A stretch of 64,000 nucleotides of DNA, taken from positions 96,001 through 160,000 of the IMG/VR virus record IMGVR_UViG_3300009031_000368. One strand, given 5' to 3'. The translations under genes and the position numbers were made by a program. The DNA comes from a virus (taxonomy: Duplodnaviria > Caudoviricetes). Shown here one piece after another: positions 1 to 64,000 of the stretch; position 1 is the stretch's first letter, and each line of letters opens with the position of its first letter. Under the pieces are notes generated by a model. It was not told the DNA's origin. It saw only the letters and a list, made by a program, of their open reading frames with translations, and did not search any database.

Positions 1-255
1 CATCTGTCGATACCGTTCACCACCAATCTCCTGTATTTGTTTAATATATCCCGCAATCAATTGCATTGTGGCAGTCGTCTTACCGGAACCTGGACGGCCT
101 GAAATTCTAATGGTGCCTGTTGGAAATACATCGGGCAGCTTGCCTAATGGAATGGACTTTCCTGTTTCCTCTTCCATTACAAACTGTTTGAGAACCTCAA
201 TCGCATCTGTTACTTCTTTTCGGTTACCGGTATCTACCTCAATTGACAGTTTCAT
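1..255 (-). CDS. P-loop NTPase (RecA/RadA/KaiC-like), 3' end runs off the window
   Basis: Not in the ORF track. Hand translation from ATG at 255 (SD AAAGG upstream) is open to base 1: MKLSIEVDTG...TIRISGRPGSGKTTATMQLIAGY..., with Walker A GRPGSGKT. Confidence 0.7.
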   Translation of the reverse strand, partial: MKLSIEVDTGNRKEVTDAIEVLKQFVMEEETGKSIPLGKLPDVFPTGTIRISGRPGSGKTTATMQLIAGYIKQIQEIGGERYRQM

Positions 256-271
256 ACATTTACCTTTCTAT

Positions 272-1129
272 TTACTTTAATGGTCCAACCGACACGATCA
301 TCTCTTCAACAAATTGCCGGTTTGCTTTACATGACACCATTCTGGCTACTGGATGTGTCGATACATGGACGAACGGCGGTGACGGGTAAATCTTTGTAAC
401 CGTATCCTCCGTCTTATGATTCGTAATAACCACCTTCGCACCAACGTTTGCCGCGTCAACCGCTAACGCTGATAGTCGGTAATGGTCGGCGTCACCAAGC
501 CATAATGGCCCATACTCTTTAAAATTAGCCGTGGCGGAAAGTGGCACATATGGTGGATCGCAATAGATGTGGTCACCGGATTGAGCCTGCTTTAGGATTT
601 TACCAAAGTCGCCCCATAGGAATTCAGTATTCTGAACGCAATAAGAAATCATCCTAAGATCGGATTCATGCGGCAATGCAACGTATTGATACTTACCTAC
701 CGGGCTGTTGAAGACTCCAGACTTATTCTCTCGATACAATCCATTATAGCATGCATGATTGAGCCAAATCATCAGCGCGGCCTGTCGGACGTTAAACTGC
801 TCAGCTGTTACCATATCATTGAATTCCTTCTTCAAGGAATCATAATGGGCTTCAAATCCGACAATCGGTAGTGACTTCAACTCCTGCATCAAGGCATCGA
901 TATTATCTCTAACCTGTGTCCATGCATTAATCAACTTCCGGTTGCCGTCTGAAAGCTGCGCCGTTTGTGCCATTCCGGATGAAAGGACATAAAGCTCTAA
1001 CGCGCCACCACCCAGGAATGGAGACCGAAACGTTCCTTCGCACTTCTTTCCAAATGCCGCCGCAATATATTGTGCCAGGCGCGACTTGCCGCCTGCCCAC
1101 TTCCAGGGAGACTTAACTGTTGCTGCCAT
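272..1129 (-). CDS. dam: DNA adenine methyltransferase (Dam/D12 class)
   Basis: KSPWKWAGGKSRL N-terminal motif, FLGGG motif I, LNHACYNGLYRENKSGVFNSPVG, DPPY catalytic motif. Confidence 0.92.
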   Translation of the reverse strand: MAATVKSPWKWAGGKSRLAQYIAAAFGKKCEGTFRSPFLGGGALELYVLSSGMAQTAQLSDGNRKLINAWTQVRDNIDALMQELKSLPIVGFEAHYDSLKKEFNDMVTAEQFNVRQAALMIWLNHACYNGLYRENKSGVFNSPVGKYQYVALPHESDLRMISYCVQNTEFLWGDFGKILKQAQSGDHIYCDPPYVPLSATANFKEYGPLWLGDADHYRLSALAVDAANVGAKVVITNHKTEDTVTKIYPSPPFVHVSTHPVARMVSCKANRQFVEEMIVSVGPLK

Positions 1130-1149
1130 TTTCTACCTTCTCTTCAACT

Positions 1150-1995
1150 TTAATTAGCCCATGATAAATCTAACCATCGCAGTATGTTACAAACTTGACC
1201 AGTATCGCAATTTACTACACTATATCCAATTGATTTCTTTCCACACCATGGTTTCCATCTTTCGACCGGCCCACGATTGCCTGACACATAACAAACGGCA
1301 TCAAATATTCCAATCTTTTCCGCTGCTATACGATCAGTTAGTTCATACAGTCGTTCGTAAAACATACGTTCTGCTTCATCGGGCGACACTGGAATAATTG
1401 TTTCCTTCAACGGCTCCACGTTGATGTTCCATTTCAATCCGCCATCCTTCATGAGATCGCGCTTTTCGGTCACCAATAACACATTGTCGGCATACTTGAG
1501 ATACCATGGTTCAACGTCGGGCAATCCGAGCCATCTCCAAGCTGTTGACATCCCGCGCTTTTCCACATCCCGGTATGGTTTCATTTCCGGCATATATTTC
1601 AATGGCCGGACGATATCGGACAGATATGCTTCCATGGTCTCATGAAACAATCCATACATGCCGCCGATTCGACATTCCAATTCACTGCAACAGTGACTTC
1701 TCAATATCGATTCGATCAATCGTGAAACTCTAACCGAGTGTTCGGCAACCGAGTAGAATTTGAGACAATGACCGCAAAACCGGCAAAGCTTACTCAGTGA
1801 TGCCGCAATATCTTGTACGCTGAAATCCTCAACCCGCACATCTAGTGGATAAAACTTTCGCGCCGAATATGTTTGCGACCAGTCACCATGACGTGGTTCA
1901 CTGTTGGCTTGAAGTCCATTTATGTCAGCAATGGTCTGCCTATCTATTTCAGACATCATGTTCCATAATGATTCATTGTAACCGTCATGTATCAT
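1150..1995 (-). CDS. HD-domain phosphohydrolase (YfbR/YfdR-like 5'-deoxynucleotidase)
   Basis: IAASLSKLCRFCGH, FYSVAEHSVRV, LFHETMEAYLSDIVRPLK, ADNVLLVTEKRDL, typical of phage YfdR-like HD proteins. Confidence 0.82.
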   Translation of the reverse strand: MIHDGYNESLWNMMSEIDRQTIADINGLQANSEPRHGDWSQTYSARKFYPLDVRVEDFSVQDIAASLSKLCRFCGHCLKFYSVAEHSVRVSRLIESILRSHCCSELECRIGGMYGLFHETMEAYLSDIVRPLKYMPEMKPYRDVEKRGMSTAWRWLGLPDVEPWYLKYADNVLLVTEKRDLMKDGGLKWNINVEPLKETIIPVSPDEAERMFYERLYELTDRIAAEKIGIFDAVCYVSGNRGPVERWKPWCGKKSIGYSVVNCDTGQVCNILRWLDLSWAN

Positions 1996-2572
1996 ATGAA
2001 CCGCCTTACCGGCACAAGCATTTCGTCATCACGCAAACGGTATAACCAGCCAGCTATACTGAATCGACGTTCACATTTAACCATTTTGAGCTTGATGTCA
2101 ACTGCACCATTGTTCCCGTTTATATCATCAAAAACCGTCGCAATCTGCCATCCAATAATGCGGATTAGTGGATTGATGACTACATTTAACAAACTTCTAT
2201 GGCTAACGATGTTACCAGCAGCATCTACAACGATACCTAGATTTAAACAAATCATGATGGGCTCTTTTCGGTTGCCTGATTGAATGTAAGCGTTATGCCT
2301 CTCTGATAGAAAGAAAGCCTAACATCATTGTCCAAATGATAACCGTTTAGCATCGATACGAATTCAGCACAGCTATCTGTTGTCTCGAACTGAAACAAAT
2401 AATAGGAGTGTCGTATCGTCTCTGGTTTTATTATACATAGTGTAGCAAGCTCTTCAGAAACCGCATAGCTCTCTGTTTCCAGCACGCAAAACACGCCTGT
2501 AGTTGCTGCCGACAATCGTTCCATATATGGTTTTACAAAAGATTCTGCGTCCAGATGAGTTTCAACAATCAT
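1992..2572 (-). CDS. Two hypothetical proteins (1992..2255, 2252..2572)
   Basis: Co-oriented ORFs coupled by ATGA overlaps. Confidence 0.6.
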
Positions 2573-2591
2573 TGCTTTATTTCCTTTATCA

Positions 2592-62487: not shown

Positions 62488-62515
62488 GCTATGCTCCCTG
62501 AATCAATGTATGGCT

Positions 62516-62543
62516 ATATTGTCACAAACGTCGAATTTGTCAA
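62516..62543 (-). promoter_or_regulatory. Sigma70-type promoter
   Basis: TTGACA-N16-CAATAT with TG extension. Confidence 0.5.
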
Positions 62544-62551
62544 CGACATTT

Positions 62552-62908
62552 TTAGATTGACGTGTTGTTCCCGCCCGTCATTGCTGCGACGTCGCGTTCC
62601 CGTTTACGCATTTCTACACTTTTACGCAGGATAGAATCCAGTATTCCCATGTGCTCATCAAGAAAGCCTTCCGGCCAATCCTTGACTGCACCATAGCGGT
62701 TGACGACCACCTGTTCGCCGTTAAATTCAAATCGGACATCATCGGCATCAAGTCGTCCTTCAACGATCATGAGCCGAAGCGCATCAAATGTCGCCGGTTC
62801 ATTAACGGATAAGCAGGTATTGTGACGCCCTACTCCTTCATAGAAGGCAAGTATCTTTTCAGCCTTTTCGCGAGCTGACTCCGGGTTATCGATGACAACA
62901 GTTAACAT
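62552..62908 (-). CDS. Stand-alone DUF3696-like domain
   Basis: FDALRLMIVEGRLDADDVRFEF...VNRYGAVKDWPEGFLDE. Confidence 0.6.
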   Translation of the reverse strand: MLTVVIDNPESAREKAEKILAFYEGVGRHNTCLSVNEPATFDALRLMIVEGRLDADDVRFEFNGEQVVVNRYGAVKDWPEGFLDEHMGILDSILRKSVEMRKRERDVAAMTGGNNTSI

Positions 62909-62916
62909 GATGTTAC

Positions 62917-64000
62917 TTACTCCTTCTGTTCAATTAGGCTTCTGGCGAACATCAATGCGCCATCAAGGTCATCGAAACATCCATCCAGCTGCGCTTCAAA
63001 CGCGGCTCTGGTGATTTCTCCAATCGTTTTACCTGGCGTCAGTCCAAGTTCGAGCAGATGCCGGCCAAACAGAATTGGTTTTACGGATCCATTATCAGAC
63101 CTGGTTTCGCGCGACAATTCCAGCATCGTTTGTGCCGATTCCGGCAACCCTTTCGGCAACGGTGGACGTCCGCTGGCGTCAGCTTCAATCAACAGGCACA
63201 ATTCACGGATTGTTGCCTTCCCGAGCCTAACGGCAAGCCGACGAACCGCCTTAGCGGATTGACAGCTACCATGAGCCAGATGATTTGTTACAAGCGGGAT
63301 GATGCGATCCAACAATGCACCGTTATGTCGTTCATCGATGCCGATCCCTGATAAAAACTTTATCGCTGGAACTTTACCCGCCTTTTCATGACCGAGCGAT
63401 CGGATTCGTCCATCGATCACTTCGGTTGTAAACGGCTTCGCCATATCGTGGCACAACGCGGCCAACATCAATACCGCTCTATCGTCATCGACAATTGATT
63501 CCCTGTCGCAGATCTCTGACATGCAGTCTACAACGTGGTATGTGTGTTGGAAGCAATCGACCTCTGGATGCCATACCGGATCTTGTTCAACGCCATACAT
63601 GGCGAACAATTCAGGATACAATTCAATCCAACCGGTATCGCACAAGAACATCAATCCCATCGATGGAACGGTTGACTTCGTCGCCCACTTATACCACTCA
63701 CCAAAGATGCGTTCTTTTGATAACGTGCCGTATTCATCGCGCAATCGATTGCACAATGTTGCCGTGTGGACGTCCACCGTCATGTTAAAGCGTCCAGCGA
63801 ACTGCATCCCCCGCAATACGCGCAACGGGTCTTCGGCAAATCGCTCTGATGTATGCTTTAGAACGCCAAGCCTAAAATGTGAATCGCCACCAAATAGATC
63901 GATAAATTCCGATGATGCGAAACTATACATCTGTGCATTGCACGTATAATCGCGCAGGGAGCATGCTTGATTGATCGTCATATGCGGATCCGGCTCGGGA
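62917..64000 (-). CDS. cca: CCA-adding enzyme/tRNA nucleotidyltransferase with HD domain, 5' end off the window
   Basis: LRDYTCNA (RRDFTINA-like), FAEDPLRVLRGMQF, LSKERI, QDPVWHPE, HTYHVV, LCHDMAKP; frame open to the window edge. Confidence 0.92.
   Translation of the reverse strand, partial: PEPDPHMTINQACSLRDYTCNAQMYSFASSEFIDLFGGDSHFRLGVLKHTSERFAEDPLRVLRGMQFAGRFNMTVDVHTATLCNRLRDEYGTLSKERIFGEWYKWATKSTVPSMGLMFLCDTGWIELYPELFAMYGVEQDPVWHPEVDCFQHTYHVVDCMSEICDRESIVDDDRAVLMLAALCHDMAKPFTTEVIDGRIRSLGHEKAGKVPAIKFLSGIGIDERHNGALLDRIIPLVTNHLAHGSCQSAKAVRRLAVRLGKATIRELCLLIEADASGRPPLPKGLPESAQTMLELSRETRSDNGSVKPILFGRHLLELGLTPGKTIGEITRAAFEAQLDGCFDDLDGALMFARSLIEQKE

Follow-up and report, generated by a model that had tools for sequence, protein, structure and literature searches.

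The chromosome of a phage from groundwater metagenomes (Duplodnaviria; Caudoviricetes; IMG/VR record IMGVR_UViG_3300009031_000368) keeps a short dyad word, GCAATYRATTGC, at about one copy per 3-4 kb over its whole length, as does a broad clade of phages. The word is under selection, evenly spaced and present clade-wide. A homodimer of the phage-encoded phrog_17202 protein probably docks on the double-stranded DNA of each copy, a prediction drawn from the symmetry of the site, the copies that precede the gene of this protein and the covariation between its residues and the bases of the word. The window analyzed here is a stretch of 64,000 nucleotides (bases 96001-160000) of a single viral contig of 231,714 bp, with a CheckV completeness of about 76%; several samples, including four other groundwater runs, hold contigs that are at least 99% identical to it.

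Number and context of the copies

The word occurs 20 times in the window, against a mean of 0.07 in dinucleotide shuffles. The centre is CA/TG in 18 of these copies, CG in two and TA in none, and six additional copies carry one mismatch. An earlier note, made from the letters of the window alone, had counted the same 20 copies at the same places and with the same centres, together with the six near-copies, and both counts are confirmed. The copies are the following, in positions of the window:

53..64, copy GCAATCAATTGC, inside a minus-strand gene that crosses the window start
3916..3927, TG centre, inside gene 3843-4373 (176 aa, common to relatives)
6651..6662, CA centre, in no called gene, 19 nt before the next sense-strand start
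12190..12201, TG centre, inside gene 11478-12725
14393..14404, CA centre, inside gene 13940-14884
16357..16368, CA centre, inside the TOPRIM primase gene 15904-17040
21617..21628, TG centre, inside gene 21571-22452
24600..24611, CA centre, inside gene 24042-24695
27043..27054, CA centre, inside the DinG-like helicase gene 26518-28473
30067..30078, TG centre, inside gene 29208-31058
31833..31844, TG centre, no gene from the gene caller, within open reading frame (ORF) 31769-32089
32838..32849, CA centre, inside small gene 32597-32884
35924..35935, CG centre (perfect palindrome), inside gene 35218-36489
42953..42964, CA centre, inside gene 42899-43675
45237..45248, TG centre, inside gene 44537-45298
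52438..52449, CA centre, inside gene 52113-52691
56845..56856, CA centre, inside the alanyl-tRNA synthetase-like gene 56037-58034
58670..58681, TG centre, inside gene 58641-59024
61491..61502, TG centre, inside gene 61344-61898
63741..63752, CG centre, inside a gene that starts at 62917 and crosses the window end
17097..17108 (genome 113097), one-mismatch copy GCAAGCAATTGC
26747..26758 (genome 122747), one-mismatch copy TCAATCAATTGC
38382..38393 (genome 134382), one-mismatch copy GCAATCAATTAC, within the 7-kb gap 35924-42953
47654..47665 (genome 143654), one-mismatch copy GCATTCAATTGC, within the 7.2-kb gap 45237-52438
49472..49483 (genome 145472), one-mismatch copy on the reverse strand GCAATCAGTTGC, within the gap 45237-52438
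60978..60989 (genome 156978), one-mismatch copy GCAATCAAGTGC

Over the whole contig (231.7 kb) the word is found 58 times, a density of about 250 per Mb, with CA (28), TG (25), CG (4) or TA (1) at its centre on the plus strand and hence a balanced orientation (28:25). It is by far the commonest 12-mer of the contig, with 53 copies against 10 for the next unrelated 12-mer. Copies with one mismatch outside the centre number 17, for 30 possible variants, which indicates that the exact word is what is kept; three of the six in the window fall inside the two gaps of about 7 kb, so that the earlier remark that near-copies fill these gaps stands. As many as 46 of the 58 copies lie inside called genes, whereas a synonymous-codon shuffle within each gene gives a mean of 3.0 (maximum 8) and a codon-order shuffle gives 0.11. 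The word thus draws codon choice towards itself by a factor of about 15, and peptide sequence by a factor of about 27. The bending of protein sequence had already been claimed in the earlier note, and the word survives the codon-aware null that it asked for. The peptides most often encoded are xQSIA, xQLIA, AIDC, AINC, and NQL. Copies are read in all three codon phases and both orientations, as had been noticed in the window and now holds over the contig, and they occupy any relative position in the gene; the centre that is used in each phase follows from the avoidance of TGA and TAA stops.

At its full length the site is a dyad of 14-16 bp, R-Y-GCAAT-YR-ATTGC-R-Y, in which the word forms the core; TGCAA-N4-TTGCA is a more general form. 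The flanks prefer R-Y-core-R-Y, most strongly C at position +13. At positions -1 and +12 the combinations are T-A (154), C-G (8), T-G (45), and C-A (39), with an odds ratio of 0.70; T/C and A/G are therefore preferred independently, and the sites behave as duplex half-sites instead of a hairpin. This bears on the reading of the word as a hairpin in single-stranded DNA or RNA, which could, for example, signal to the TOPRIM primase where to prime, or act in processing or stability. Such a role would suit a dyad found on both strands, a spacing of 2-4 kb that recalls Okazaki-scale distances, and a TOPRIM primase that is common across the clade. However, the flanks show no base-pair covariation, and on this absence the hairpin was rejected; moreover, the asymmetric copies of Vibrio phage SIO-2 (GAAAT...ATTGC) would break the stem, and at -2.8 to -5.7 kcal/mol the hairpin that the DNA could form, with its loop of 4 nt, is a weak one. 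It is consequently regarded as highly improbable.

Spacing and turnover of positions

The gaps between the copies of the contig are more even than random (coefficient of variation, CV, 0.70-0.71; p = 0.002-0.003), and close pairs are avoided, with two gaps below 1 kb against 12.7 expected (a value reached in 0 of 20000 simulations). The copies are thus under-dispersed, the property for which the earlier note had proposed a test. When the one-mismatch copies are added, the CV falls to 0.57 and the largest gap is 9.4 kb. Even spacing is also observed in Stenotrophomonas phage DLP5 (28 copies, CV 0.49, p = 1e-4) and in two relatives from our set of numbered genomes, G001 (CV 0.61) and G003 (CV 0.54); it is not observed in G002 and G004, in which the copies crowd an early promoter region. 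Copies within orthologous genes stand at different positions in different genomes. This lack of positional conservation implies that individual sites turn over, and that density and spacing are what is maintained.

In one rival reading the word has no reader and arises from bias in mutation, repair or gene conversion, as does the HIP1 palindrome of cyanobacteria. The presence of copies in unrelated genes and the turnover of their positions would suit this. Nevertheless, a mutational bias would not yield even spacing, the 27-fold bending of peptides speaks against it, and so do the copies at the promoter of the candidate reader itself. Little credence, if any, can be given to this explanation.

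The word in related phages

A search of IMG/VR with one 16-mer version of the word returned contigs with several matches each, in which the 12-mer occurs at 0.2-0.8 per kb; whole records hold 18-53 copies each, while the reversed word, used as a control, gives 0. The flank rule is the same in these contigs (Y at -1, R at +12, C at +13, G/A at -2), which have a GC content of 48-64% and lack DNA similarity to this 44% GC phage. Among named phages, DLP5 has 28 copies, Rhodobacter phage RcZahn 8, and SIO-2 six exact copies and 17 of the relaxed form GMAATYRATTKC, its sites often being asymmetric; Rhizobium phage RHph_TM16 has 0 exact copies and carries the sister word GTGCAACATATTGCAC instead. G001 (66% complete) has 32 copies with a strand orientation of 28:2. 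The array thus ranges from siphoviruses of roughly 80 kb to a phage of more than 230 kb, and nearly all genes lie on one strand in this phage and in the motif-bearing relatives compared. In an all-against-all comparison, this phage and the DLP5/SIO-2-like phages have in common the portal, TerL, RecA, a PD-(D/E)XK resolvase, a Cas4-like exonuclease, DnaB, the TOPRIM primase, an SNF2 helicase, AAA ATPases, and phrog_17202. The proposal that the word be counted in the full genome and in relatives has therefore been answered by 58 copies in the contig and by its presence in DLP5, SIO-2, RcZahn, and IMG/VR contigs. At the DNA level the window had no match, near or distant, in the phage collection. 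A full-text literature search for the word matched only primers, and the papers on DLP3/DLP5 and on Rhodobacter capsulatus phages do not mention it; as far as these searches reach, the feature is undescribed.

A word of the host, or one read by the host, would be an uptake sequence, a Chi-like site or the site of a conserved host regulator. The many copies that stand just upstream of host-type promoters in the relatives agree with such an origin, and the shape of TGNAANCGNTTNCA presumably recalls LacI-family operators. In five bacterial genomes (none a known host; chosen for a 16-mer match), though, there are only 1-7 copies per 3.4-5.5 Mb, or about 1 per Mb, against 250 per Mb in the phage, and on these proxy genomes the host reading was rejected; the saturation of about 1 per kb that marks DNA uptake sequences (DUS) and uptake signal sequences (USS) is absent from all five. 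A 16-mer scan over 185,579 species found scattered single matches and no saturated genome among the matches listed. In addition, phages with the motif come from hosts as different as Stenotrophomonas, Vibrio, and Rhodobacter, and it is with the lineage of the phage that the word varies. Chi-type sites are asymmetric words with polar orientation; the word here is a dyad with a 28:25 distribution in this phage, and only G001 is polar. Taken together, a host origin is very unlikely, and the earlier suggestion of a phage feature is upheld as far as these proxies reach. As a separate observation, a few bacterial loci hold 2-3 motif copies within 1-2 kb (L123, Aliihoeflea sp. 2WW contig_21, 138242-139803; L079; L095) and may be prophages or remnants of this phage clade.

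The phrog_17202 protein as candidate reader

The candidate reader is a protein of 292 aa, with a predicted fold like the helix-turn-helix domain of ParB and KorB, encoded on the minus strand at genome positions 88217-89095 (L223:8217-9095:-), 6.9 kb before the window. It matches the profile of phrog_17202 over residues 25-212 (E = 2.1e-27; 5.8e-76 for the G003 homologue), a PHROG of unknown function with 1,665 representatives at 50% identity. The gene order is as follows: RusA resolvase (L223:9517-10044, minus strand; genome 89517-90044), promoter, an SSB-like ORF, phrog_17202, a probable small terminase (TerS), TerL, and portal. The SSB-like ORF encodes a 90-aa OB-fold protein (Pfam SSB, E = 5.6e-4; L223:9122-9394, minus strand; genome 89122-89394) and directly precedes the phrog_17202 gene, a pair that recurs in the distant relatives L252 and L257; NCBIfam gave no name to any of the four neighbouring proteins. 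The gene is present in 5/5 motif-rich genomes that are at least 90% complete; the DLP5 homologue lies at MG189906 47752-48564.

Copies of the word recur upstream of this gene. The only TTAA-centred copy of this phage (1/58), which is perfectly palindromic, lies at genome 89443 over the +1 region of a TTGACA-17-TATCAT promoter that drives the SSB-like ORF and, after it, phrog_17202. DLP5 likewise has a single copy with a TTAA centre (1/28), which stands 68 nt before the gene. A copy is found 36-98 nt upstream of it in G002, G003, G004, G006, G009, DLP5, and RcZahn, where the chance of a copy that close to a given gene is 6-27%, and a one-mismatch copy precedes it in G005 and G008. Among non-redundant IMG/VR loci, the variant proper to the lineage occurs within 200 nt upstream of the gene in 15/70, against 5.3% for a random window; these variants include TGCGCATGCGCA, GCAAACGTTTGC, GCAACCACTTGC, and GCAACTGTTGC. 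According to the mechanism proposed here, a phrog_17202 homodimer would bind each copy, with specific binding expected of TGCAATYRATTGCA duplexes, and at the perfect palindrome, the one copy in the genome with a TTAA centre, the protein would repress its own promoter.

An AlphaFold (AF2) model of the protein, built on an alignment of 105 rows, has a predicted local distance difference test score (pLDDT) of 89. An exhaustive structural scan with residues 33-150 ranked ParB-family DNA-binding domains first, with Caulobacter ParB-parS at the top (6s6h; Z 6.6, 3.1 Å over 102 residues), followed by Spo0J (1vz0; Z 5.9), KorB (5.1/4.8), P1 ParB (4.5), VirB (4.4), and SopB (4.4). Among predicted structures, the protein resembles DUF3102 proteins and the DUF222 domain found at the N-terminus of HNH endonucleases; this relation is a likeness and not a membership, and no functional literature on DUF3102 was found. 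In the model, residues 1-30 amount to a tail and the first part of a long helix, with no CTPase domain. A symmetric homodimer model scores 0.52 against 0.00 for the best control, a mark reached by 20 of 30 known homodimers and by one of 23 monomers. The view that the sites are targets of a dimeric protein, already expressed in the earlier note, thus gains from the independent half-site preferences and from the homodimer model of the best candidate.

Residues of the protein and bases of the word also vary together among lineages. Residue 75, at the start of the predicted recognition helix, is Ser in both lineages with CCAAT-YR-ATTGG and Arg in 22/22 lineages of the GCAAT type (Fisher p = 0.0036); arginine reading guanine is a classical contact. 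Residue 80 is Gln or Tyr in the four lineages with C at half-site position 5 and Leu, Phe, Trp or Met elsewhere, Gly105 is lost in TGCAA-ACGN lineages, and Trp106 is lost in TGCGCA lineages. Under a strict symmetric filter, which leaves few lineages, the p-values are 0.04 for residue 80 and 0.08 for residue 105, and the links of these two residues to the word are suggestive only. A first recognition rule may be outlined in this way, in which Arg75 would go with the outer G, and residue 80 with position 5 of the half-site. Relatives of the protein in three IMG/VR loci of 65-71% GC (L274, L275, and L277) are accompanied by a shorter perfect palindrome, TGCGCATGCGCA, at 5-10 copies per 10-20 kb; together with the loss of Trp106, this suggests a change of site geometry.

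Several points weigh against this assignment. The available part of G001 contains no phrog_17202; any other gene that descended along with phrog_17202 would co-occur with the word equally; and few exact copies of the word accompany the closest relative of the protein, which is encoded in L258 (67% identity). A symmetric dimer does not explain the 28:2 strand bias of G001. The fold match is moderate, with all Z below 8 and Foldseek E above 1; there is no sequence match to solved structures, no Pfam family lies above its cut-off, and DUF3102 (PF11300) reaches 16.4 bits against a gathering cut-off of 24.4 (E = 0.011). The covariation is suggestive rather than proven because the lineages are few and possibly related and the pattern was read from the alignment afterwards. 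Finally, the TTAA centre is avoided in the dispersed copies of this phage, of which binding by phrog_17202 gives no account.

Another protein might read the word, namely a ParB_N (CTPase) protein, the small terminase or the product of a gene in the missing quarter of the genome, where a contig that is only about 76% complete leaves room for it. Indeed, ParB_N proteins adjoin TerS-TerL in DLP5, G003, G004, G006, and other relatives, and the probable TerS, which follows phrog_17202, has a stretch resembling a helix-turn-helix (HTH). Yet neither the ParB_N CTPase domain (Pfam PF02195) nor a clade-specific ParB hidden Markov model (HMM) has a match in the 231.7-kb contig of this phage or in the complete SIO-2 genome, both of which bear the word; on these searches a ParB_N reader was rejected for this phage. 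The sites at its own promoter and the residue-base covariation point to phrog_17202, so that a different reader appears unlikely.

A further alternative is that the copies are nick or cut sites of a sequence-specific nuclease, as in T5-like single-strand interruptions or in hot spots of recombination or replication restart, with phrog_17202 perhaps only a targeting subunit. The strictness of the exact word relative to its one-mismatch neighbours (53 + 5 against 17) would fit such an enzyme, as would the strand bias of G001, the likeness of the reader fold to the DUF222 domain of HNH endonucleases, and the place of the gene among RecA, two or three resolvases and a Cas4-like exonuclease. Against this, the phrog_17202 protein has no nuclease domain, no nuclease was found whose sequence tracks the word, and the orientation in this phage is balanced. 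A cutting function is accordingly given a small chance, and docking of a phrog_17202 homodimer is the preferred reading in what follows.

Other genes of the phage

The partners that the earlier note had named within the window fared less well than its counts. The HTH protein (31082-31330), the ComEA-like protein and the restriction-modification (RM)-like protein have no homologues in other motif-bearing phages. In the case of the TOPRIM protein, the primase is indeed common to relatives, but no result connects it with the word; the most likely reader is the phrog_17202 protein, encoded outside the window. The 292-aa protein at window 14913-15791 (minus strand), labelled DnaC in the earlier note, looks more like a gp32/SSB-type single-strand-binding protein by its language-model and structure neighbours; it is common to G002, G004, and DLP5. 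The window also encodes an alanyl-tRNA synthetase-like protein (56037-58034, minus strand; E = 8e-109), an RNA ligase (40874-42253, minus strand), and a DinG-type helicase (26518-28473, minus strand), the last with matches only near 30% identity and with no IMG/VR loci found in its search. A class II ribonucleotide reductase-like protein is encoded elsewhere in the phage. Such a content of tRNA synthetase, RNA ligase, helicase, and reductase is typical of jumbo phages.

Promoters and the purpose of the array

In the relatives of roughly 100 kb, 39-72% of the copies are intergenic. These typically follow a stop codon by 2-20 nt, and often a sigma70-like -35 box lies 6-12 nt downstream of them. 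This phage has about 18 near-identical strong sigma70-type promoters, TTCTCTTGACA-N14-TGnTATAtT (also written aaatTTCTCTTGACA-N14-TGnTATAtT), each 40-100 nt before a gene start, for example in the region of window position 38902 (genome 134902) and, outside the window, at genome 160685, 162129, 169916, and 203557; they are probably its early promoters. A role of the word as a promoter element was discarded for this phage, since a -35-like hexamer lies downstream of five copies and on the mirror side of seven. Two relatives show promoter arrangements of their own. In G004 (L201), record positions 79.5-87.4 kb hold about 20 tandem early units made of the motif, 10 nt, a cTTGCAA -35 box and a GCTAGAG-type -10 box; the latter, which we take to recall Caulobacter-type sigma73 promoters, hints at an alphaproteobacterial host. 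In G001 (L209-L214), a second repeated word, GAAAATATATTTTC, has about 23 copies, for example in the sense-strand region 38300-39950, and stands about 20 nt before TTGnCAAACTG...TATAAT promoters.

The even spacing, the avoidance of close pairs, the near-copies in long gaps and the fast turnover of positions suggest a coverage function. On the proposed mechanism, the array would give the protein even coverage of the chromosome, each bound dimer serving a few kb; clamp loading and sliding of the ParB/KorB kind are not expected from a reader that lacks a CTPase domain. Any particular purpose of the array is offered tentatively. Two weaker readings carry about equal weight. In one of them, the array may be a scaffold or a mark of "self" for replication, recombination or packaging; the neighbouring genes (SSB, RecA, resolvases, exonuclease, and here also TerS-TerL-portal) favour the organizing or marking of DNA that is replicated, recombined or packaged. 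In the other, it may exert transcription control over the whole genome, of the KorB or stoperator type, as favoured by the copies near promoters in the smaller relatives, some of which are temperate. DLP5 is a prophage of the plasmid kind, and both DLP5 and VHS1 persist as episomes, like P1 (PMC5834331, PMC3148565). The roughly 18 strong promoters of this phage have no copy nearby, with hundreds of bp to the nearest. A more specific version, which we find attractive and yet doubtful, is a chromosome-wide "self" barcode, in which a new family with only the HTH of ParB (phrog_17202) would read evenly spaced dyads that are embedded in coding sequence and turn over fast, protein and word co-evolving in each lineage. 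If true, a broad phage clade, ranging from 80-kb siphoviruses to jumbo phages, would tell apart and organize its own DNA in replication, recombination and packaging, as a counterpart of matS/MatP or NBS/Noc.

Whatever its purpose, the word weighs on the codons and on the protein sequence of hundreds of unrelated genes, and the cultured members of the clade (DLP5, SIO-2, and RcZahn) make the question directly testable. If the array organizes or marks the phage chromosome, it would represent a new layer in the DNA management of large phages, and the word would give a handle for assigning metagenomic contigs to the clade.

Comparison with known systems

Dispersed dyad repeats have been noted before in phages, without a reader or a purpose. 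As a description, the closest precedent comes from Cluster O mycobacteriophages, whose 17-bp dyad, TGTTCGGNNNCCGAACA, has 34 copies in Corndog; as here, more than 30 invariant dyads are spread over the genome, partly in genes, with a variable, unoriented centre and no known function (PMC4351075, PMC6439249). The word, the phage clade and the hosts are different, and the array described here is under-dispersed, mostly embedded in the coding sequence of a large phage and provided with a candidate reader that shows residue-base covariation.

The stoperators of Cluster A mycobacteriophages and the C1 operators of phage P1 are repressor sites scattered by tens over the genome for genome-wide control; they are asymmetric, mostly intergenic and oriented with transcription. 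The word, in contrast, is a dyad, mostly inside genes in this phage (46/58) and unoriented except in G001; intergenic copies are frequent in the relatives (39-72%), some of them 6-12 nt upstream of a -35 box.

At the level of mechanism, the nearest analogue may be KorB, a dimeric ParB-type HTH protein that acts on 12 OB operators of the IncP plasmid RK2, dispersed palindromes of 13-16 bp on a mobile replicon (PMC11790492). The site described here is likewise a dyad of 14-16 bp with independent half-site preferences and a passing homodimer model, and in both cases some sites stand just upstream of -35 boxes and others far from them, with apparent self-regulation. There are at least 58 sites here, mostly inside coding sequence and evenly spaced, and no partner of the KorA or ParA type was identified. 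Moreover, unlike KorB, ParB-parS, Noc-NBS, and VirB-virS, the candidate reader lacks the ParB_N CTPase domain, and by this comparison it would be a ParB-type site reader at most, not a member of the family.

The matS/MatP, SBS/SlmA, and NBS/Noc systems also consist of short palindromes embedded in genes that are read by a dimeric protein for chromosome organization. They are cellular and confined to chromosome domains, whereas the array covers a whole phage genome evenly. We interpret it as the probable dispersed dyad sites of a phage-encoded DNA-binding protein, notable for how far it extends, for lying mostly within genes, for its even spacing, and for a candidate reader that can be tested.

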